DNA from: a virus
Lineage: Duplodnaviria; Caudoviricetes
IMG/VR virus record: IMGVR_UViG_2744054517_000003
Location: 1-64,000 of that record
Direction: 5' to 3' (one strand)
Length of the DNA: 64,000 nucleotides
Of the stretch, positions 38,421 to 63,866 are shown piece by piece. The notes beneath the pieces were generated by a model. It did not search any database and had not been told where the DNA came from. It saw nothing but the letters and a program-made list of their open reading frames with translations. Numbering within the stretch: position 1 is the first letter of the stretch; each line of letters begins with the position of its first letter. A program made the position numbers and the translations under genes.

Positions 38421-38467
38421 AAGATGCTGGTGAAGGGAATTGAACCCCCGGCCTACGCATTACGAGT
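38421..38467 (-). repeat. att core copy 1: 3' half of tRNA-Thr(CGT)
   Basis: 47 bp identical to 54944-54990; reverse complement has anticodon loop CTCGTAA, T-arm GGTTCAATTCC and acceptor strand CACCAGCA; 5' half absent. Confidence 0.95.
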
Positions 38468-40527: not shown

Positions 40528-42609
40528 TTAATTCGCCCATGCTTTAACGAACGCGCGCGCGATCTTTTCGATGTCTGCGTCTTCACGTATGGTCGTACCG
40601 TACATATTGACTACGATACCTCCGTTGCTGCCCTTACCACGTTGTTGATCGCGCCATTCAGACGCCTCGTGCTTCGTTAAGACCGCCTCATCACGGTGAA
40701 GTGTAGCGGGATAACCGTTCATAGGTACCCGGTCAAGTCCGCCCGCGTGCTTATTGCCAAGCTTTTTCCGCCGCTCCGCGTTATGTGCCGCCAACTGGTC
40801 GTCTGGAACACCGCCCATCCACGTAGGCAAGTGCTTATTCGTCCAGTCAAAGAATCCATTCACAGCGTCGCTCGATCCAAGAGACTTCGCTCCCTGACCA
40901 ATGTAAACATTAGATGCACCACCGCCTGCTCCTATTGCAGCCCCTGCGAGGGCACCACCAGGACCAAACAGACCGCCGACTATTGCCCCGCCGCCACCGT
41001 TAAGCACCGCACTAGCGATAGGGTCATTAGCGATCGCTTTCTGTATCCCGTCAATTAATCCAGACCCAAGTTTTAACCCGACACTCACAAACGTTGGTAC
41101 GGCTGCTTCGAGAGACGATGCCATGAACTGAACGACCTGTGCTGTCAATTTCTCTACAGCGTCTCGCCCCCCACCATTCCACCAATTGGAGAACGCCTTT
41201 TCTATCTTTTCGAAGGCGAACGCGACTTTACTTTTAATGTCTGGAAGCTTCGTAAACTCAGGGTTATTAATAAAGTTATCCTTGAGGAACGTTTTAGCGG
41301 TTGTTACTGCGCTCTCTACCGCTGCGGTAATCTGCGGAGTGTACTTAACGACAAAGTCTGCGGCAGCTTGCGCGAGCTTCTTCAGGATCGGCATCGTCGG
41401 AAGCAATGCGGAAATTCTTAAAGTTTCCAATGCTCCTTCGAATTGTTCTACCGCACCCGCTGCGTTATCCATCTTCTTGGTTGCGACTTGTAACGCGGTG
41501 ACATTCGCCATCTCCTGTTGAAATTTCTTAACGCCAGCCGCGCCTTCTTTGAAGAGGATGTTGCCCGCACGAATTGCATCGGACCCAAATATCTGATGCA
41601 AGTAGTATTGACGTTGCTCGTTCGTAAGCTTCCCGAATCGGTTCTTCAGCAAATCCGCTACTTGCGCTAGGTCTTTAATCTCACCCTTTTCGTCGTAAAA
41701 CGCAGAGTGTACGAGATTACTCGCGGTTAAGAACTTCTTCGTTTCCTTCGTGGCCTTAGCCGTACCGACCTTGAGTCCCGTCTGCGCTGCGACGTATTTC
41801 TCGATATCCTTCGTAACCGCTTGGACGGATGTGCCCGTTGACTTAATGCCCTTTTTGGACATAAATGCGAGGGCATCCGTGGTATTTACGGTCAAGAGAT
41901 TGAAGTCCTCGAACATGCCATACGCCTTGTCCGTTGCTGGAACCAAGTTGGACAGGAATGTCTTCAGCGACGTACCCGCGTCTGCGCCCTTCAGCCCGTT
42001 ATTCGCGAACAAGCCTAGCGCTGTATTCGTGTCCTTAAACGACTGCCCTACGCCATCAGCAACGGAACCGACCGCTGCCAACGAGTAACGCAAGTCGTGC
42101 ACGTCCGTAGCTGACGCATTCGCAGTACCCGCCAAGATATCCGCAGCCTGCGCCGCAGTTAAGCCGTCTTTCTTAAACGAGTTAAGCGCGGTCGACATAA
42201 TTTCCGCAGATTCCGCTAGGCCGAGTCCACCGGCCGTCGCCAAGTTAAGCGCTGCGTTAAGACCGCCCGCTTGGACTTGCGCGGTGGACATGCCCGCTTT
42301 CAACAGTTCCTCGATCCCTTGCGCGGCTTCGAGCGCACTATATTTCGTTAATGCGCCTTGTTGGAGCGCGAGTTGTTGCATGGCTTTCGTCTGCGCGTCT
42401 GTCGCGCCCGTTAACGCCTGAATCGTAGACATCTGTGACTCGAAACTCATCGCTTTCTTTACGGAGTCAGCCGCGAACGCAATCCCCGTAGTCGCAACAC
42501 CAATCCCCGTTGCTGCCACGCCAAATTTCGTCATATTACCGAATGCCTTACGTAGCGGGCGGCTCAAGTCATCTACTAAACGTAAGTGTCCTACCAGATC
42601 GAATGAAAT
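40528..42609 (-). CDS. satellite tape measure protein (TP901-type core), ~693 aa if started at ATT
   Basis: A.SFESQMS.I.ALTGAT, TKYSALEAAQGIEELLKAG, GLKGADAGTSLKT, IFGSDAIRA, KMDNAAG; C-terminal HAGGLDRVP..GY.A.LHRDEAVLT. Confidence 0.9.
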   Translation of the reverse strand: MSFDLVGHLRLVDDLSRPLRKAFGNMTKFGVAATGIGVATTGIAFAADSVKKAMSFESQMSTIQALTGATDAQTKAMQQLALQQGALTKYSALEAAQGIEELLKAGMSTAQVQAGGLNAALNLATAGGLGLAESAEIMSTALNSFKKDGLTAAQAADILAGTANASATDVHDLRYSLAAVGSVADGVGQSFKDTNTALGLFANNGLKGADAGTSLKTFLSNLVPATDKAYGMFEDFNLLTVNTTDALAFMSKKGIKSTGTSVQAVTKDIEKYVAAQTGLKVGTAKATKETKKFLTASNLVHSAFYDEKGEIKDLAQVADLLKNRFGKLTNEQRQYYLHQIFGSDAIRAGNILFKEGAAGVKKFQQEMANVTALQVATKKMDNAAGAVEQFEGALETLRISALLPTMPILKKLAQAAADFVVKYTPQITAAVESAVTTAKTFLKDNFINNPEFTKLPDIKSKVAFAFEKIEKAFSNWWNGGGRDAVEKLTAQVVQFMASSLEAAVPTFVSVGLKLGSGLIDGIQKAIANDPIASAVLNGGGGAIVGGLFGPGGALAGAAIGAGGGASNVYIGQGAKSLGSSDAVNGFFDWTNKHLPTWMGGVPDDQLAAHNAERRKKLGNKHAGGLDRVPMNGYPATLHRDEAVLTKHEASEWRDQQRGKGSNGGIVVNMYGTTIREDADIEKIARAFVKAWAN

Positions 42610-53724: not shown

Positions 53725-54783
53725 TTAGCGTCTCTTTCCTGCGCGAGTCATTCCGAGTCGTGAAAGTGGCGAAAATTGTGAATGACTGTCTCGCATAGCA
53801 CCTTCGTTTACCTTGACGTACCCTTGCGTAGTCTTAATATCAGCGTGCGCTACGATCCGCTGCAAGGTGAAGAGGTCACCGCCATTAAGTAGATAGTTTG
53901 TGCAGAAGTAATCGCGGAATCGGTGCGGTGATACTGGAGTTACCTTCCGATCGATACCCACTTTGTCCGCATACTGGCTTAGTCTCTTTCGGAATTGGTC
54001 GGCTTTTAACGGATCACCGTAATTCGCCAGAAATATGAAGTCCGTATCAAAATAAGAGCGATTCTCTTCCATAAGGATAACCAACTCACGCAAAACACTC
54101 GCCGATACCGGAACAATTCGCGGCTTTCTGTTTTTGTTCATATGGCCCGGCAGCCGAATACATCGTGACGCGATATCCAGGTGAGTCGATTCCAGCCGCA
54201 ACGCCTCATTAATTCGCAATCCTGTATCTGCAAGTAACAACATAAGCGTACGGTCGCGGAAGCCCGCAAATGTATCAACGTCGGCAGCTTCGACTAAATC
54301 TCGGAGTTGTTCATCTACAATTACGCTCTTCTCTTCCGTATCCTTGCGTGGTGGCTTTAGCTTCTCCGCCGGGTCTTCTTTCATCAATCCCTCGGACATC
54401 CAAAATTTACACATTGTTTTCAACGCGCGGAGTCTTGACGCTACCGTTACGGGTGAGAGATTGCACCCTTCTACTCGCCGTTCTGCGACGCCGTCGTATT
54501 TTGTCCGTTCGTAGGACATGTAGTTCATATACTCGCGTAGAATGGCCGTATCGAGCTGGCCTACTTCATCTATCTCCGAGTGATTCTCCATAAGCCACTC
54601 CCGAAAATAACGCCAGTAACTTTGATAGTCTTCGAGTGTTCGTGTCCGTAACTTCTCCGCTCGTTTAGCGTTGAAGAATAGATCGAACCCCAAGTCAAGC
54701 CCGACGAAGCCGACCTCTTTTCCAGACCGCCCACTGCGGCGTTTAGCCGTAACAGCCTTACCCTTACGCGGATCAACTGACAT
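53725..54783 (-). CDS. int: tyrosine recombinase/integrase of the satellite
   Basis: DTGLRINE, NKNRKPRIVP, HRFRD, AHADIKTTQGY catalytic motifs; ~160 bp from att. Confidence 0.95.
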   Translation of the reverse strand: MSVDPRKGKAVTAKRRSGRSGKEVGFVGLDLGFDLFFNAKRAEKLRTRTLEDYQSYWRYFREWLMENHSEIDEVGQLDTAILREYMNYMSYERTKYDGVAERRVEGCNLSPVTVASRLRALKTMCKFWMSEGLMKEDPAEKLKPPRKDTEEKSVIVDEQLRDLVEAADVDTFAGFRDRTLMLLLADTGLRINEALRLESTHLDIASRCIRLPGHMNKNRKPRIVPVSASVLRELVILMEENRSYFDTDFIFLANYGDPLKADQFRKRLSQYADKVGIDRKVTPVSPHRFRDYFCTNYLLNGGDLFTLQRIVAHADIKTTQGYVKVNEGAMRDSHSQFSPLSRLGMTRAGKRR

Positions 54784-54943: not shown

Positions 54944-54990
54944 AAGATGCTGGTGAAGGGAATTGAACCCCCGGCCTACGCATTACGAGT
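54944..54990 (-). repeat. att core copy 2: 3' half of tRNA-Thr(CGT)
   Basis: identical to 38421-38467; 5' half of the tRNA absent. Confidence 0.95.
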
Positions 54991-55353: not shown

Positions 55354-55575
55354 ATGGCGGCTCCTCAACCTGAACCAGGGAGAAGCCGTTTGCCTGAGTT
55401 GCTAAAAGCAAATAGAATGAAGCAAGTAGATCTTGCTAATTACTTGGGCGTGTCTCCAGCTCTTATCTCGCGAATAATTGCTGGGGAACGTCTTTTTTCT
55501 TATCCATTGGCTGCTAGGGCAGCTTTTAAGCTTGGATGCACAATGGAAGAATTGCATGAATGGGACTTGTGTTAG
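55354..55575 (+). CDS. XRE-family HTH protein
   Basis: MKQVDLANYLGVSPALISRII.GER; GAGGTG RBS. Confidence 0.85.
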   Translation: MAAPQPEPGRSRLPELLKANRMKQVDLANYLGVSPALISRIIAGERLFSYPLAARAAFKLGCTMEELHEWDLC

Positions 55576-55911: not shown

Positions 55912-56283
55912 CTAGAAAAATACGACATTTGGATTCAACACCTCAAGTCTGTTAATCGCTTCATCATATCTGTTATGAGCGATTTCACACCTTTTTGATT
56001 TCTTTGTAATTTCTTCTTCGAAATATACCTCTTTAAACAAAGTGTTGATTTTAACAACATTGTCTGCATTAAAAATATTGCTTCTATCTGCATATACAAA
56101 ATTACTACTTTTGTTTAAAGCATTCATGCAGTATTTTAATGGACCTGTCATGTAGTATTTGTTATCTTCGGTATGTACTACAAGACGATCGATGATCCGT
56201 TTGTAACTTATAAACCATATTGAGTCAACCGGCAAATCAATATACCCTGATAATCCTTCGGCATCAGATGTTACGCTTACCAC
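55912..56283 (-). CDS. stand-alone LytTR DNA-binding protein
   Basis: I.FI......LVVHT....Y...L......L....FVYADRSNIFN..NV; no receiver domain. Confidence 0.8.
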   Translation of the reverse strand: MVSVTSDAEGLSGYIDLPVDSIWFISYKRIIDRLVVHTEDNKYYMTGPLKYCMNALNKSSNFVYADRSNIFNADNVVKINTLFKEVYFEEEITKKSKRCEIAHNRYDEAINRLEVLNPNVVFF

Positions 56284-56294
56284 AAAAACGCCCC

Positions 56295-56417
56295 CTATTC
56301 AAACAATTCTGATGGCGGTTCCGGGCTGTAAATAAAAGCGATACTTGCGACACTTACAGTTAAAACCGCGATTGAAGATAATACTGTCGCCAACTTAGAA
56401 TATATATTTTGGGTCAT
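56295..56417 (-). CDS. agrD: AgrD-like cyclic lactone autoinducer precursor (40 aa)
   Basis: MTQNIYSKLATVLSSIAVLTVSVASIAFIYSPEPPSELFE: amphipathic leader, Ser core, Y.PE.P..L tail; directly after agrB. Confidence 0.8.
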   Translation of the reverse strand: MTQNIYSKLATVLSSIAVLTVSVASIAFIYSPEPPSELFE

Positions 56418-56425
56418 GTCCTTAA

Positions 56426-56941
56426 TCACCTCCTTAAGTTAATCAGCGTCAAAGATTGTGCCAGGATGCTTATTGCTATAAAAGGATGAGTAAACCAAAG
56501 ATTAAATCCTACAAGAATAAACGCAGCTACTTTTAGAGCAGAAAAATACTTTGGCGGTATACGGGTCTGTTTCTCTATCCCCGCTGGAGCAAAAAGTAAA
56601 ATTAGAATCATACTGATTCCTGTTGCAATCATAGTCCATTTGTGGTCCAAAGTTATGAACGATAATCCAGTAAACAGAAGCGTGGAAACAACTACGCAGC
56701 CCATACCGCTTTTAAGGTGTACCCCTCCTGTCATTTGTCTCAAGATAGCAAAGGTCATCATTATAGTGAATACTTCCCCTGCTTTACCTGTTAGCAAGGC
56801 TATTATGATCGTTGCCACAGTTATAAAGACTATATTAAGAATCACTGCTAATGCATGTTTCAAAACTGGCACAGAGGCCGGGTGATCTGGTACCACACTC
56901 TTTATATGCTGCGCCATCCGCAAGGCTAGTGGCTCAATCAT
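56426..56941 (-). CDS. agrB: AgrB-like membrane endopeptidase
   Basis: FAILRQMTGGVHLKS..GC (catalytic His/Cys), LFAP motif, multiple TMs. Confidence 0.9.
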   Translation of the reverse strand: MIEPLALRMAQHIKSVVPDHPASVPVLKHALAVILNIVFITVATIIIALLTGKAGEVFTIMMTFAILRQMTGGVHLKSGMGCVVVSTLLFTGLSFITLDHKWTMIATGISMILILLFAPAGIEKQTRIPPKYFSALKVAAFILVGFNLWFTHPFIAISILAQSLTLINLRR

Positions 56942-57572
56942 CTTTAGAAGACAGCTCCTCTCTTTCTTTCACCACTGCATAATACAGAAACAATCCCGCT
57001 ACAAGCGCGAGAACTAATATTATAAACAGAAGGTTGTTGTAAAACATAACAGTTGCAGAAGCGATAAGCCCAACCATTATGAAAGCAATTACTGCTATAT
57101 GCTCCCATTTGAAACGCAACCGTTCAAACTCTGCTGTGAATCCGATTTTGAATTTTAATAATATCCATACAAAAAAGAAAGTCCACGCGCTTGTGACTAT
57201 TTGAACGACTGTCCCGGCTGACGAATACTGCATATCCTCTGTGAAACTACCGAAAAGAGACAAAATAACAAGAGCCTGAAACGCGGTGTAGATAAACATT
57301 CCTGTCATAGCCATGATCGCTGCCCACAATATAGGGACTCTGACCACTGTCGTAATAAGTAATATAAATATTATCGTACTTATTGCAGGAACCATGAAGG
57401 ATAGAGACATTTGTTCTCTCAAAAAAAAGCTAATGAGGTTCATAATCAAAAAAGAAAACAAGCCCGGCCATAAAAATTCAAGAGGTTTAAGCCTATATAT
57501 TGATAACATTAAAGAAAATGCCGCAAACGATTCCACGCTTGAAAATAATAAAAACCTCACCGCTTCCCACAT
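56934..57572 (-). CDS. seven-TM membrane protein resembling an AgrC sensor domain without kinase domains
   Basis: 212 aa, almost wholly hydrophobic helices; overlaps agrB start; no HisKA/HATPase. Confidence 0.65.
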   Translation of the reverse strand: MWEAVRFLLFSSVESFAAFSLMLSIYRLKPLEFLWPGLFSFLIMNLISFFLREQMSLSFMVPAISTIIFILLITTVVRVPILWAAIMAMTGMFIYTAFQALVILSLFGSFTEDMQYSSAGTVVQIVTSAWTFFFVWILLKFKIGFTAEFERLRFKWEHIAVIAFIMVGLIASATVMFYNNLLFIILVLALVAGLFLYYAVVKEREELSSKDD

Positions 57573-57693
57573 TACATATGCTCCTTCACAATTGGTAACA
57601 AATATGCTTTTATTCTATATTTGTTATCTGTTATGGGCAATGCAATTACCAATCTATTTGGTAATTTTTATGTATTATGTGAGGTAATTATTT

Positions 57694-58026
57694 TCAGTCT
57701 GCGGATATAATATCCTCTAGTTTAATCCAACTAAAATCATCTTCCCCACGAACCAGTTTTACCTCACGTCTAGCGGTGTTAATTGACGTAACTACACCAG
57801 TCATGTCCGTATCGTCAAACGGGCTAAATACGGTCACTGTCACGGCTGTACGTGTATTGTAAGACTCTATTAGAGCCTGCTCAATCAATTGTACTTCCTG
57901 GTCATCCAATTCTGGTTTACCGCGCCGTTGACGGTCCTTCATGAGCTTCAAATAAGCTTCTTTATGTTCTGGTATGATAATCCGGCTGCTTTCCCATAAG
58001 CCGTTACCTTCTAATTTTTTAGACAT
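57694..58026 (-). CDS. yolD: YolD-like protein
   Basis: MSKKLEGNGLWESSRIIIPEHKEA...KPELDDQE...WIKLEDII; AGGAGG RBS. Confidence 0.85.
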   Translation of the reverse strand: MSKKLEGNGLWESSRIIIPEHKEAYLKLMKDRQRRGKPELDDQEVQLIEQALIESYNTRTAVTVTVFSPFDDTDMTGVVTSINTARREVKLVRGEDDFSWIKLEDIISAD

Positions 58027-58065
58027 GTATGTAGCCTCCTGATGTGTTATGTAGAAATTATATTC

Positions 58066-58079
58066 CGAACACTTGTTCC
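58066..58079. promoter_or_regulatory. Firmicute SOS (LexA/DinR) box upstream of yolD
   Basis: CGAACACTTGTTCC fits GAAC-N4-GTTC. Confidence 0.8.
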
Positions 58080-58135
58080 TTACAAGGGATATCATTTCCA
58101 GTACGTAAAAAAATAAACCTCAGATTATCCGAGGT

Positions 58136-58441
58136 TTAATATTCCGTAAAATATCTATTCGCATCACCCGGCGACATCGGTCTACTTCGTCCGCGCTCCC
58201 AGCCCTCTATAATAACGATATGCCGCGTATCTGACTGGTCTTCCCAAGTAATATAGTTATCCTTCTCCAAGGCCAGCAGTCCTGCCTTTATATCCGTTAC
58301 ACTCCTACCTGTCTTGATCTCCAACTCATTCATAGTTGGCATTCGTCGTTTCTGTGCAAAAAAGTTGTAAAGAATACGCAGTAACTTACGCTCGATGTCT
58401 GGTAACAAAGCGATCCACTCCTTTGTTACTATTATATACAA
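58136..58441 (-). CDS. LexA-DNA-binding-like winged-helix protein
   Basis: ERKLLRILYNF....RRMPT..EL..KTGRS...I...L..LEK..YI.W; true start probably internal; SOS-like CAAACATGAGTTCT at 58439-58452. Confidence 0.65.
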   Translation of the reverse strand: MYIIVTKEWIALLPDIERKLLRILYNFFAQKRRMPTMNELEIKTGRSVTDIKAGLLALEKDNYITWEDQSDTRHIVIIEGWERGRSRPMSPGDANRYFTEY

Positions 58442-58542: not shown

Positions 58543-58767
58543 ATGGCTAGGGTCGATAAAATCATCGAGAAAATGAAAAACCGCCCTAACGGGATTAGGT
58601 TCGCGGAGATAGCAAAAGTCCTGAATCATCTGGGTTACATAGTGGTACGAATTAAGGGTTCGCATCACATATTCCGAAATGAGTCAGGAGACACGCTCCC
58701 GATACCTTTTGAAACACCCGTCAAGGCGGCGTACGTCAAAGACGTACTGGAGATCATCGGGGAGTAG
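58543..58767 (+). CDS. hicA: HicA mRNA interferase toxin
   Basis: IRFAEI.KVL..LGY....KGSHHIF. Confidence 0.9.
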   Translation: MARVDKIIEKMKNRPNGIRFAEIAKVLNHLGYIVVRIKGSHHIFRNESGDTLPIPFETPVKAAYVKDVLEIIGE

Positions 58768-58814
58768 TACCTCCCCTTTGTTCTCAAAATCATTTTATCC
58801 TAGCCTACATTAAT

Positions 58815-59183
58815 ATGGCAAATGAAAAACCGATCCAAAAAGACATAGCGTATTACATGGCGCTCCCGTATACAATTCAGATTAAGCATATGAACGACGA
58901 AAGCGGAAGCTACCACTTAGCTACAGTCGCGGAGCTGGAAGGTTGCAAGAGCCATGGCGACACGCCAGAAGAAGCCCTGAAAATGGTCAGAGAAGCTATG
59001 GAGGGTTACCTTGAGGTAAAGCTTGAGTTTGGCGATGAGATACCGGAACCAGTAAATGAGGAACAATTTAGTGGCAAATGGTTGCAACGTGCTCCAAAGT
59101 CCCTGCATAAGCATTTGATGGAGCGTGCAGCAGCAGAAGGCATATCCTTCAACCAATATTGCTTATACAAACTGAGTAAGTAA
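58815..59183 (+). CDS. hicB: HicB antitoxin
   Basis: YYMALPY, ELEGC.SHGDTPEEAL, FSGK...R.PKSLH..L...A..EGIS.NQY. Confidence 0.9.
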   Translation: MANEKPIQKDIAYYMALPYTIQIKHMNDESGSYHLATVAELEGCKSHGDTPEEALKMVREAMEGYLEVKLEFGDEIPEPVNEEQFSGKWLQRAPKSLHKHLMERAAAEGISFNQYCLYKLSK

Positions 59184-60711: not shown

Positions 60712-60834
60712 TTAAAATCCTCCAATGGTAACGTTAGGCTGAATACTATGGTGGTGGTTAAAGGCTTGATCCGGCACAGTAACAATCAACAAAAAGCTAG
60801 CCGCAATGATTAAAAGCACCATTTTTTTGAACAT
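60712..60834 (-). CDS. Alo/RRNPP-type secreted signalling pro-peptide (40 aa)
   Basis: MFKKMVLLIIAASFLLIVTVPDQAFNHHHSIQPNVTIGGF; overlaps receptor 3' end; hairpin follows. Confidence 0.8.
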   Translation of the reverse strand: MFKKMVLLIIAASFLLIVTVPDQAFNHHHSIQPNVTIGGF

Positions 60835-62212
60835 TGTTTTCCCACACCCTTTCAATAAGATTGAAATACTCAGCTTTAGTTTCAGGAACCGCATGGGCTT
60901 GAAAACGAACAAATAACCCCATACAGTTTATAAAGTAAGTTTCATTATTTATTATATGTGACTTTACCATTGCATTCATTAAATATTTAAAGCCATCACT
61001 GTACTTTCCTCGATGTAAATAATAAAAACCTAACTCGTAACCAAACCACGCGATATAATCCGGTATCACTTGTCGGGTATACATATCATCTGATGATGGT
61101 TGCTGTGAAAAAGTCCCGATTAGTTTTTCAAATCGTTTGAGTATATCGTCTACATTTATGCTGAACTGGTTTGCTGCGATTATAACATTCAACAGTTTTG
61201 AGAGCTTTTCATTCTCATTAGCGGCTGATGTTACAGCAATATATTCAACATATTCATTCAGTAGATTTGTTTCTCCTGACAACAATTTATATACGTAAGC
61301 ATTACCTTCTGCCCACTGACTGAACAAATTTACCCAGTGTCTTGTGTCCTCGTCGGTCTCTTTAACCCAGTCTAAATCCGCATAGGCGTATGTATATTGT
61401 AGAGCTTGCTGATAATCGCCCCGGGCTTCGCAAACACTTGCACACAATAGGTCAGCATAAGCAATGTATCCAAATAGCGGACCTCTTGTTCTCTTTTCAA
61501 TATCTCGTAACTCACGTTTTTCTTGGTGTTTTAAACTATACTGGATTTCCGCTTTAGCTCTCATTTGTCTTGCCATTTCGTCTACCTTGTCCCATTTACG
61601 CAAAGACCTGTATACATTAGCTAAGTCCTTCAATGCGTCAAGCTGGTCTATTTCATCTAGGCGTTCGACAAAGGCTTCAAAAACAGCTGCTGCCCTAACA
61701 TTTTGGCTTTGATCGTCTCCAATTTTGATTGTGAATATACGATATTGGCAGATTGCCAAACGTTCAGAATGTTGATATCTCTCCGCTTCAGCCACTCCCT
61801 CATAGAGCAGCAATGCAGCCTGATGTCGTCCCTGTGACAATAATCCTTCTGCAATTTCAAATAGCTTGGGTGAATACAGGAGATTGTCCATGATGGCTCC
61901 CACCACTCGACGGATCGCATCCAACCTGTCTAACTCCGCACAGCGAAACAAAAATGGCTCGATTCGCCTCATATTCGGGGGATGGTCGATGATGAAGTTT
62001 TCTATAAACAGATCGTAAAACTCCCCTTCTGGTAAACCCATAGCCTCAGTGATTCGGTCAAGCTGGTTAACTGACATAGACTTATTCCCTGTCACAATAG
62101 CACTTATTATCCCCCTATTCATGCCTGCAAGTTGTCCGAATTGCGCTAGGCTCAAACCTTTTTGTTGTATATATTTATCTAATTCTGCTCGAATCGTAGG
62201 TGTATGCTTCAT
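60797..62212 (-). CDS. HTH + TPR-like peptide-receptor regulator (AloR/AimR-like)
   Basis: paralogue of 1285-2664 with divergent C-terminal third; pro-peptide overlaps its end. Confidence 0.8.
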   Translation of the reverse strand: MKHTPTIRAELDKYIQQKGLSLAQFGQLAGMNRGIISAIVTGNKSMSVNQLDRITEAMGLPEGEFYDLFIENFIIDHPPNMRRIEPFLFRCAELDRLDAIRRVVGAIMDNLLYSPKLFEIAEGLLSQGRHQAALLLYEGVAEAERYQHSERLAICQYRIFTIKIGDDQSQNVRAAAVFEAFVERLDEIDQLDALKDLANVYRSLRKWDKVDEMARQMRAKAEIQYSLKHQEKRELRDIEKRTRGPLFGYIAYADLLCASVCEARGDYQQALQYTYAYADLDWVKETDEDTRHWVNLFSQWAEGNAYVYKLLSGETNLLNEYVEYIAVTSAANENEKLSKLLNVIIAANQFSINVDDILKRFEKLIGTFSQQPSSDDMYTRQVIPDYIAWFGYELGFYYLHRGKYSDGFKYLMNAMVKSHIINNETYFINCMGLFVRFQAHAVPETKAEYFNLIERVWENNVQKNGAFNHCG

Positions 62213-62486
62213 ATCATATCCACCCTTCATACAGAAATTCCAAAACTTATATATTATTGCATTCTATTGTTGTCCATAATTTAACAGTTGTCAATAAGTT
62301 TTGAATTTTTTGTCATTCGGATATTCAACTAAATTATTTTTTTGAATATTGTCGATTACTGTAAGACAAATAGTGCTACAATATCATTTTTCCATTTTGT
62401 TAATAGAAACACACAAATTATTCCTTTCTTTGTGTTATACTAACTCAGCAATGCAAATAAATCCCATTTTGAAAGGACGATTTTTA

Positions 62487-63419: not shown

Positions 63420-63866
63420 CTATTTCACGATAAATTCAACTTTTGTCCCATCTGCGTAGTCGTCTAACTTGTGACCTACCCACGATCCAGCTCCACGATT
63501 ATCCTTTGGACTTATGTACTTAATGTCTGCACCCTCTCCACCTTCGGAGCACATCGCCATAGGCCATTCATCGCGGTCCTTGCCCTTCTTGGTGGGCACA
63601 CCCTTTAGGGACAGCTCGCGATTATGGTCGGCTCCTTCACGGTCTATTGTGCATACTGGTGATTTTCCCGCCTGAATGGCTTCCTTGATGTGCTGGGCCG
63701 TTTCTGGGTACTTGGCTGACGGAAACTCCAGTTTGACCGTATCGGCAGATACCTGCGTTACCGGAACAGCTACTGGGTCGCTCTTAGTGGTCTTTACAAC
63801 GTCTTGTTGTACGCTGCAGCCAGCTAATAGGACTGTTATCAACACGGTAAATATCCATCTAAACAT
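63420..63866 (-). CDS. nucB: NucA/NucB-family DNase, lipoprotein
   Basis: lipobox LAGC; [41 protein letters not shown]. Confidence 0.9.

Follow-up and report, generated by a model that had tools for sequence, protein, structure and literature searches.

Agr is the classical example of a peptide signal read by a histidine kinase, and a widespread natural version that retains the sensor and the DNA-binding domain without either phosphotransfer domain would show a second way to read cyclic peptides. The locus analysed here raises the question of whether such a version exists. It is a cassette of four genes in a Paenibacillus prophage region, on the minus strand of the window—by which we mean the whole stretch of DNA analysed, 64,000 nucleotides, positions 1 to 64,000 of the IMG/VR virus record IMGVR_UViG_2744054517_000003 (Caudoviricetes)—and it encodes a polytopic membrane protein hereafter named TM, an AgrB peptidase, an AgrD peptide precursor and a DNA-binding protein reduced to its LytTR domain. 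How could these four proteins form a signalling circuit, with neither a kinase nor a receiver domain among them? The answer that we favour, with a probability of about 0.55, is a self-contained peptide quorum-sensing module working without phosphotransfer, in which the signal generator of Agr would be joined to an output in the style of the streptococcal LytTR regulatory systems (LRS).

Gene content of the cassette and nature of its membrane protein

The four open reading frames (ORFs) found by scanning the window follow one another in the tandem order TM–AgrB–AgrD–LytTR, behind a single promoter and ahead of a single terminator (Table 1). TM and AgrB overlap by 8 nt, and gaps of 8 nt and 11 nt separate AgrB from AgrD and AgrD from LytTR; the motif AAGGAGG, read from the sequence, stands 9 nt ahead of the AgrD ATG at 56417. 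The tight coupling of four genes, described in an initial annotation made from the letters alone, is thus confirmed. AgrB, AgrD and LytTR all score above the curated cut-offs of their families. As for the claimed absence of kinase and receiver, it holds for the whole 107,633-bp record, where HATPase_c_5 and Response_reg both have 0 matches and where exactly one LytTR domain is found. Since the sensor has no DHp or ATPase domain and the regulator no receiver, phosphotransfer is impossible for the module.

TM matches no Pfam or NCBIfam family. Its AlphaFold2 model (pLDDT 81.2) contains seven long helices, in agreement with the 212-aa, seven-pass protein announced by the initial annotation, plus one short helix; a short charged tail follows the last helix. 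The 26 relatives returned by a word-indexed search are all 206–218 aa long and all from Paenibacillus where the organism is named, and the same type of search restricted to longer proteins returned none. When 1.84 billion representatives were searched exhaustively with HMMER (E ≤ 0.001), all 106 relatives were at most 242 aa long. Ten sampled TM clusters belong to Paenibacillus, Cohnella, Priestia megaterium and Brevibacillus laterosporus, all of them labelled hypothetical.

The link of TM with a known type of protein comes from full-length kinases. The hidden Markov model (HMM) of the TM family matches, by hmmsearch, three of 23 HATPase_c_5 kinases (E 1.1e-9, 1.6e-8 and 9.8e-8), and in these three the match is collinear, HMM positions 2–204 running along kinase residues 2–224. 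The three kinases are 441–443 aa long, combine SPOB_a with HATPase_c_5, are encoded in the gene order kinase–AgrB–AgrD, and stand beside AgrDs that fit the TM family's own AgrD profile. Profile comparison by hhalign with 23 HATPase_c_5 kinases sampled across the class gives a probability of 85.6% in local mode (TM 12–150 on kinase 4–138) and of 93.8% in global mode, against 1.0% for the reversed profile and at most 0.3% for ten column shuffles. A structure search of the ESM Atlas places TM on the N-terminal membrane region of HATPase_c_5 kinases of 418–447 aa, with a TM-score by query of 0.61–0.72 in four of ten rows; the feature search of the Atlas gave no usable match for TM among named clusters, and the TM profile run against PDB sequences hit only an ORM1-like protein (E 0.009). 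TM is thus, by homology, an AgrC-type sensor module: the sensor half of an AgrC-type kinase, stopping where the DHp helix would begin. The three kinase loci (3397–5476 of L117, 3348–5427 of L118 and 5276–7356 of L119) lie in genomes of the same class; beside the kinase no LytTR or AgrA gene was detected, and a sigma-70-type factor is convergent in two of the three.

The initial annotation had pointed out that homologues normally bearing a kinase would speak for a truncation. The distant homologues (E 1e-8 to 1e-9) are indeed full AgrC kinases, but every close relative is stand-alone; with 106 of 106 relatives short and the same design conserved across loci, the view that the cassette is no pseudogene scar is upheld. 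The stand-alone AgrC-like sensor is a new protein family without a Pfam model. Its most conserved stretch is the loop between helices 5 and 6 (K140, F141, I143, G144, F145, A147, E150, R153, F154, W156 and E157), a region whose alignment with the kinases is of low confidence only.

AgrB and AgrD bring the signal side of the cassette. All 31 AgrB sequences compared, two of them from phages, share the residues R68, G72, G73, H75 and C82; His75 and Cys82, seven residues apart, are presumably the equivalents of His77 and Cys84 of the Staphylococcus aureus enzyme, with the same catalytic spacing. The AgrD family follows the pattern A-S-x4, then [HYNS]-[SNQE]-[PG]-x-x-P, then E-L-L. The serine noticed in place of cysteine in the initial annotation is the rule and not an accident of one sequence: in the family alignment it occupies the ring position in 27 of 28 AgrDs, the single exception (L032) having a cysteine in the same column, and the window protein scores as AgrD by TIGR04223. 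In the window AgrD the predicted ring S-I-A-F-I is followed by the tail Y-S-P-E-P-P-S-E-L-F-E. This supports a predicted five-residue lactone as the product of AgrD, made of S-I-A-F-I in the window. A lactone autoinducing peptide (AIP) reportedly exists in Staphylococcus intermedius, to go by the title of one paper.

The fourth protein was described at first as a LytTR-only protein of 123 aa, and this description stands: LytTR is above its cut-off in the window, PF04397 is matched by 17 of the 20 aligned homologues, and no other family is found in any of them. As LytTR is the sole family matched, none of the 20 carries Response_reg. The model of the window protein (pLDDT 93.5) has as best fold match the LytTR domain of S. 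aureus AgrA (4g4k_A, E 3.4e-6, TM-score by target 0.82), and the best profile match is also AgrA (3bs1_A, E 0.0028). In the latter profile alignment the invariant D66-R67 of the LytTR protein fall on the H-N of the AgrA motif FFRCHNS, and we take the aligned AgrA residue to be one that contacts DNA.

Conservation and co-variation of the four genes

Relatives of TM are present in 33 of 93 Paenibacillus genomes, often in 2–5 copies. At 31 distinct loci, tblastn with the window proteins finds AgrB 29 times, AgrD 27 times and LytTR 23 times, with 21 full-length LytTR ORFs of 123–139 aa. Among 23 IMG/VR loci the counts are 23 for TM, 23 for AgrB, 21 for AgrD and 21 for LytTR, both LytTR misses falling at a contig end. 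The cassette is a complete, conserved unit and not a truncation; these sequence comparisons establish homology for each of the four parts and show that the four are conserved together. Individual class-A copies have LytTR gone or broken (L004, L006, L007, L017 and L020), with in addition a shortened AgrB in L017, which suggests that individual copies decay in multi-copy genomes. Besides, eight loci of complete Paenibacillus genomes (L056–L063) form a diverged class lying among host core genes: TM is there ~38% identical, the AgrD ring reads SYVYV, and neither a LytTR match nor a YolD-like neighbour is found. At L058, the sole locus of this class scanned with Pfam, the neighbours are a cytidylyltransferase-like protein, a Gate-domain protein and a Lon/PDZ protein.

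While conserved as a unit, the cassette varies strongly in sequence. The left flank of the viral contig L071 is 95.5% identical to the window over 4.2 kb and 86.5% identical up to 57096; between 57096 and 56101 no nucleotide similarity is left, and past this gap it is back at 68%. What remains of TM, the whole of AgrB and AgrD, and the start of LytTR fall within the gap: the cassette is hypervariable between near-identical flanks.

Do the four genes vary together? Pairwise identities were compared across 27 loci with 2000 label permutations, a procedure that ignores shared ancestry, and on this basis TM identity tracks ring identity given AgrB with a partial r of 0.43, a value reached by 0 of the 2000 permutations, whereas the reverse partial correlation, of AgrB with the ring, is 0.15 (55 of 2000). 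LytTR identity tracks TM with r 0.95, and with a partial r of 0.75 given AgrB. Single loci illustrate this behaviour. In L019 and L020, AgrB is 71% and 69% identical to that of the window and TM 48% and 46%; the LytTR protein of L019 is 41% identical, and in L020 no LytTR was detected. In L003, which has the ring SIAFI in common with the window, the identities are 65% for AgrB, 85% for TM and 71% for LytTR. As the TM and LytTR genes are not adjacent, the way in which they diverge together while AgrB stays conserved is that of a functional pair.

The cassette also has its own conserved regulatory DNA. The box standing upstream of the promoter (Table 1) is kept upstream of TM in 15 class-A loci, and the segment from -125 to -25 is 70–84% identical, against 60–68% for the TM coding DNA in most class-A loci compared.

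Proposed circuit and competing readings

From these elements the following circuit can be proposed. AgrB would cleave the 40-aa AgrD and close a five-residue lactone, by joining the serine onto the residue that precedes the Y-S-P-E-P-P tail, and the peptide would be exported. The stand-alone AgrC-type membrane protein may then act as the receptor of the lactone peptide. Because TM has no kinase, we propose a direct contact between TM and the LytTR-only protein, which, by analogy with LRS, could be held inactive at the membrane and released on peptide, or the reverse; the likeliest surface for such a contact would be the invariant cytoplasmic loop between helices 5 and 6, KFKIGFTAEFERLRFKWEH. 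Once free, the LytTR protein may bind the box upstream of its own -35 and autoinduce the operon, possibly with other targets. Of the phosphorylation-independent cyclic-peptide circuit put forward in the initial annotation, one part is now well grounded, that is a conserved design without kinase or receiver and a sensor of AgrC type; the cyclic peptide keeps the status of a prediction.

The many specificity variants fit a kin-specific signalling among lysogens or phages. One step further, temperate phages of Paenibacillaceae might use a self-sufficient, phosphorylation-free Agr circuit whose variants are "pherotypes" for counting kin in the manner of arbitrium, thereby tuning induction, lysogenisation or superinfection exclusion; we offer this role tentatively and would not bet on it.

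Several observations weigh against the proposed circuit. LytTR has no match at 8 of the 31 loci, it is broken in L004, and the host-core class is devoid of it, so that TM–AgrB–AgrD can persist without LytTR. The contact between TM and LytTR is drawn from co-variation, in which common descent was left uncorrected, and from analogy. The 107.6-kb record was searched for a second copy of the box with a tolerance of up to 5 mismatches per 23 bases, and none was found; with a single box, no phage target is visible for the LytTR protein. The repeat of the box has a period of 23 bp and ends 19 bp from the -35, unlike the LRS repeats, which in the available text of PMC6193735 are two direct repeats of 9 bp separated by 12 bp and standing about 10 bp ahead of the -35. 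On the side of TM, a first hhalign run against the N-termini of only 7 Paenibacillus kinases gave no match, and Foldseek found none in the PDB at E ≤ 0.001. A match of TM with Pex3, given by VIA-align in wide mode (best Z 8.3), was rejected as lying within the noise of helical bundles.

Could TM be something other than a receptor? It might serve the maturation or export of the peptide or protect the producer, as an accessory of AgrB or an immunity protein, with the LytTR-only protein being an independent regulator. The lack of a known family for TM leaves room for this, the co-variation with the ring would equally be expected of an immunity or export partner, and sets of TM, AgrB and AgrD do exist without LytTR. 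Nevertheless TM has a collinear homology with the sensor module of true AgrC kinases, which are themselves encoded in kinase–AgrB–AgrD loci, and no protease-type invariant His or Glu motif is seen among its conserved columns. Besides, LytTR follows TM more than AgrB, though the TM and LytTR genes are not neighbours. An accessory or immunity role thus seems to us unlikely, while keeping some credit.

The initial annotation had also evoked the jamming of host Agr. TM or the lactone peptide would then be a decoy for the thiolactone Agr of the host, and the LytTR-only protein, ignoring the phage peptide, would compete with host AgrA at Agr-type promoters. The Paenibacillus genomes that bear the module do encode full AgrC-type kinases too, a canonical system with a Cys-type AIP is documented in P. 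polymyxa in the available texts of PMC12180512 and PMC13700820, and a receiver-less LytTR domain could occupy AgrA sites. At the opposite, TM tracks its own ring and LytTR tracks TM, as expected of cognate partners and not of a decoy, and the module owns a conserved promoter box. The decoy is in our opinion about as unlikely as an accessory role.

A third possibility is that the partner of TM is a separate kinase of the host or some further effector, the LytTR-only protein being the output of some other input. The contact of TM with LytTR being itself a proposal, there is space for such a partner, and a use of host components has been suggested for phage agr cassettes that have no AgrA, according to the accessible part of a review (PMC11945551). 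No kinase or receiver is encoded anywhere in the record, however, and the four genes travel together across genera and into phages with different hosts, which argues for self-sufficiency; we regard dependence on a host partner as improbable. As for a decaying, non-functional remnant of an agrCBDA-type locus, which the full-kinase nature of the distant TM homologues and the copies with LytTR gone or broken could evoke, it is very improbable given frames that dozens of species and phages keep intact and at a fixed length, catalytic and motif residues that are invariant, and a tight coupling with promoter and terminator present.

If the peptide-sensing module without phosphotransfer, our preferred reading, is true, LRS would gain a first defined ligand. 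The bolder reading with pherotypes would, if true, give the first case of AIP sensing transduced by contact between proteins, and phage peptide communication would have a second family, independent of the first. In the SPbeta-like phages, the arbitrium system (AimP/AimR/AimX) relies on a cytoplasmic RRNPP receptor and on a linear imported peptide. The cassette has in common with it a phage-encoded peptide signal, many specificity variants and a location in the lysogeny region; it differs by unrelated proteins, and by a membrane sensor and a predicted cyclic peptide. The presence of the cassette in real temperate phages and at prophage ends, with a specificity swapped between near-identical flanks, makes it a candidate, open to testing, for communication between phages or between lysogens by means other than the arbitrium family.

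Known systems, phage carriers and place in the record

The cassette shares many features with canonical Agr, such as agrBDCA of Staphylococcus or agrABCD of the paenibacillin cluster of P. polymyxa: an AgrB with invariant His and Cys, an AgrD with a five-residue ring and a tail rich in Pro and acidic residues, a polytopic sensor with homology to the N-terminal part of AgrC, a LytTR output best matching AgrA, and a hypervariable region spanning sensor, AgrB and AgrD. It differs in having a sensor without DHp and ATPase and a regulator without receiver, in its order sensor–B–D–regulator, in the serine of the ring (a predicted lactone in 27 of 28), and in being prophage cargo. The Agr systems characterised in Paenibacillus are, in the accessible parts of the papers describing them, canonical, Cys-type and kinase-dependent (PMC12180512, PMC13700820).

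With LRS, the common points are a receiver-less LytTR protein co-transcribed with an enzyme-less polytopic membrane protein, as in HdrRM and BrsRM of Streptococcus mutans, and an upstream repeat which, near the -35 of the cassette, suggests autoregulation. According to the available text of PMC6193735, membrane inhibitors control HdrR and BrsR in streptococci, and a survey lists more than 4600 putative LRS operons (its S3 Table). The membrane protein of the cassette, on the other hand, is of AgrC type, DUF3021 and DUF2154 being matched by 0 of 23 TM members (E ≤ 0.01). The regulator gene comes first in the short operons of LRS, as presented there, whereas in the cassette the order is reversed and agrBD stand between the two genes; and the cassette encodes a dedicated peptide signal, whereas the signals of the streptococcal LRS are unknown. 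The module works like both Agr and LRS and belongs cleanly to neither, because it has no kinase or receiver, its membrane partner is not a DUF3021 or DUF2154 protein and its gene order is reversed. In the literature searched as full text, supplementary tables apart, we found no description of a kinase-less Agr with a LytTR-only partner, nor of a stand-alone sensor family.

Among phages, the agrB-agrD-agrC set of phiCDHM1 differs by keeping a full AgrC kinase and having no regulator (PMC3901668, as far as its accessible text goes). Closer systems were recovered when AgrB was compared by tblastn with 50,697 phage records: Brevibacillus phage Abouo and the Paenibacillus larvae phages Harrison and Paisley; TM itself gave no match by tblastn in the same records. 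Abouo and Harrison have the same four-gene order, with a 222-aa "membrane protein", an AgrB whose gene has an 8-nt overlap with the first, a peptide of 42 aa and a "peptidase" of 118–122 aa. All four genes are homologous to those of the cassette, and the location is again the integrase/lysogeny region: the Abouo cassette lies between the integrase and repressor-type regulators, and that of Harrison just ahead of the integrase. Their membrane proteins match the TM family HMM with E 1.8e-30 and 2.6e-33, respectively. Since the two "peptidases", gp47 of Abouo (L033, 3651–4019) and Harrison_41 (L034, 3648–4004), match the LytTR-only HMM (E 6.5e-9 and 1.9e-7), this label is probably a misannotation of a LytTR-only regulator. 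A recurring misannotation, as "peptidase" or as "hypothetical protein", is corrected in this way. No repeat of the kind found in the window was seen upstream of the Abouo and Harrison cassettes when looking for pairs of 9-mers with at most 1 mismatch and a period of 18–25 bp.

Previous reports recognised these phage genes in part. AgrB, AgrD and ATPase-less membrane proteins were noted by Hargreaves and colleagues (2014) in phages Abouo, Davies and Emery, and the fourth gene is not recognised as LytTR in the available text of their paper (PMC3901668). A review of 2025, in its accessible part, considers that such phages have no AgrA-like output and may use that of the host (PMC11945551); the papers describing the phage genomes list, in the portions available, only an AgrB family protein (PMC4168068, PMC4909266).

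A survey of synteny in prophages, recommended by the initial annotation, finds the gene order of the cassette again in 23 viral contigs and in Abouo and Harrison. As to the term "prophage-borne" used for the window, it is sustained by these homologous cassettes beside an integrase in isolated temperate phages, and has to be qualified in view of the structure of the record itself, which is classed as a provirus yet combines three or more phage-like blocks, with the cassette in a low-GC cargo strip. From 5.5 to 32.5 kb are found phage late genes, including one for a tail-fibre repeat protein. A 16.5-kb block bracketed by a perfect direct repeat (Table 1) comes next, with 48–52% GC, a tyrosine integrase (53725–54783) and a 679-aa minor-tail protein (40528–42567); it resembles a small phage-like element or satellite integrated beside the cassette. 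From 64 to 107.6 kb extends a prophage with a Terminase_3 terminase, an SPP1-type portal, a Mu-F-like protein and an integrase at its far end. The cassette is part of a strip of 38–41% GC (55–64 kb) set between blocks of 44–52% GC, more precisely between the 16.5-kb integrase element and the lysis end of the Terminase_3 prophage.

Table 1. Position of the cassette, its regulatory elements and the adjoining features in the window.
Feature	Position	Strand	Support
TM, stand-alone AgrC-type sensor module, 212 aa, without DHp or ATPase domain	57572..56934	-	ORF, HMM, model
AgrB peptidase, 171 aa	56941..56426	-	PF04647, 62.4 bits (cut-off 23)
AgrD precursor	56417..56295 (40 aa from ATG); 56429..56295 (44 aa from GTG)	-	TIGR04223, 22.3 bits (cut-off 19)
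LytTR-only DNA-binding protein, 123 aa, without receiver	56283..55912	-	PF04397, 29.1 bits (cut-off 22.6)
Conserved 57-nt box ahead of the -35, with a pair of ATTACC-type half sites 23 bp apart and a palindrome with 9-bp arms	57692..57636	-	
Promoter TTGCCC-17-TAGAAT	57640..57612	-	Promoter scan
Intrinsic terminator directly after the LytTR stop codon	55913..55892	-	7-pair stem then TTTTTTT
YolD-like gene, conserved upstream neighbour	57694..58095	-	PF08863, 84.5 bits; adjoins TM in most class-A loci and viral contigs
101-aa phrog_3502 protein, weak DnaD_N-like match, frequent neighbour upstream of the YolD-like gene	58136..58441	-	
73-aa XRE-type HTH gene, in convergent orientation to the cassette, which it separates from the 47-bp repeat	55354..55575	+	HTH_3
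Perfect 47-bp direct repeat bracketing the 16.5-kb block; right copy is the low-coordinate limit of the cargo	38421-38467 and 54944-54990	.	Self-blastn

In the cargo strip the cassette is accompanied by the YolD-like and phrog_3502 genes, a HicA/HicB pair, an HTH-TPR regulator and a NucA/NucB-like DNase. This order of the cargo is repeated in other genomes and viral contigs, where it follows homologous late genes and closes with the cassette. By synteny, the module thus travels as the last block of cargo, at the lysis-distal end, in temperate phages of Paenibacillaceae. On this recurrence we read the cassette as the probable terminal cargo of the 64–107 kb prophage, att sites having not been found. 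In 15 of the 23 IMG/VR loci the record stops within about 3.4 kb after the LytTR gene. At L050 (6559–7185), the only such locus scanned with Pfam, host lexA and a LysM gene lie about 1.4 kb past the end of the cassette, which suggests a shared integration site; L047, L049 and L052 have an ORF-size pattern like that of L050. ORFs resembling the 73-aa HTH gene are present at other loci, the match being on size and position alone.

Some members of the cargo deserve a mention of their own. The HicA toxin and HicB antitoxin are encoded on the plus strand of the strip (58543–59183), and the NucA/NucB-type DNase (63420–63866) is a conserved member of the cargo, with 85–95% identity in several other proviruses. 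The 78-aa ORF that follows the HTH-TPR regulator might have been a propeptide, an idea dropped because its N-terminus is not signal-peptide-like. Two paralogous regulators of 474 and 477 aa (1285–2709 and 60797–62230) are 84% identical in nucleotides over 975 bp; the second matches HTH_3 and, weakly, TPR, and the first has no Pfam match at E ≤ 0.001. They may be RRNPP-like receptors, that is a second signalling system in the same cargo, and a conserved segment of about 270 bp comes after each of the two genes.

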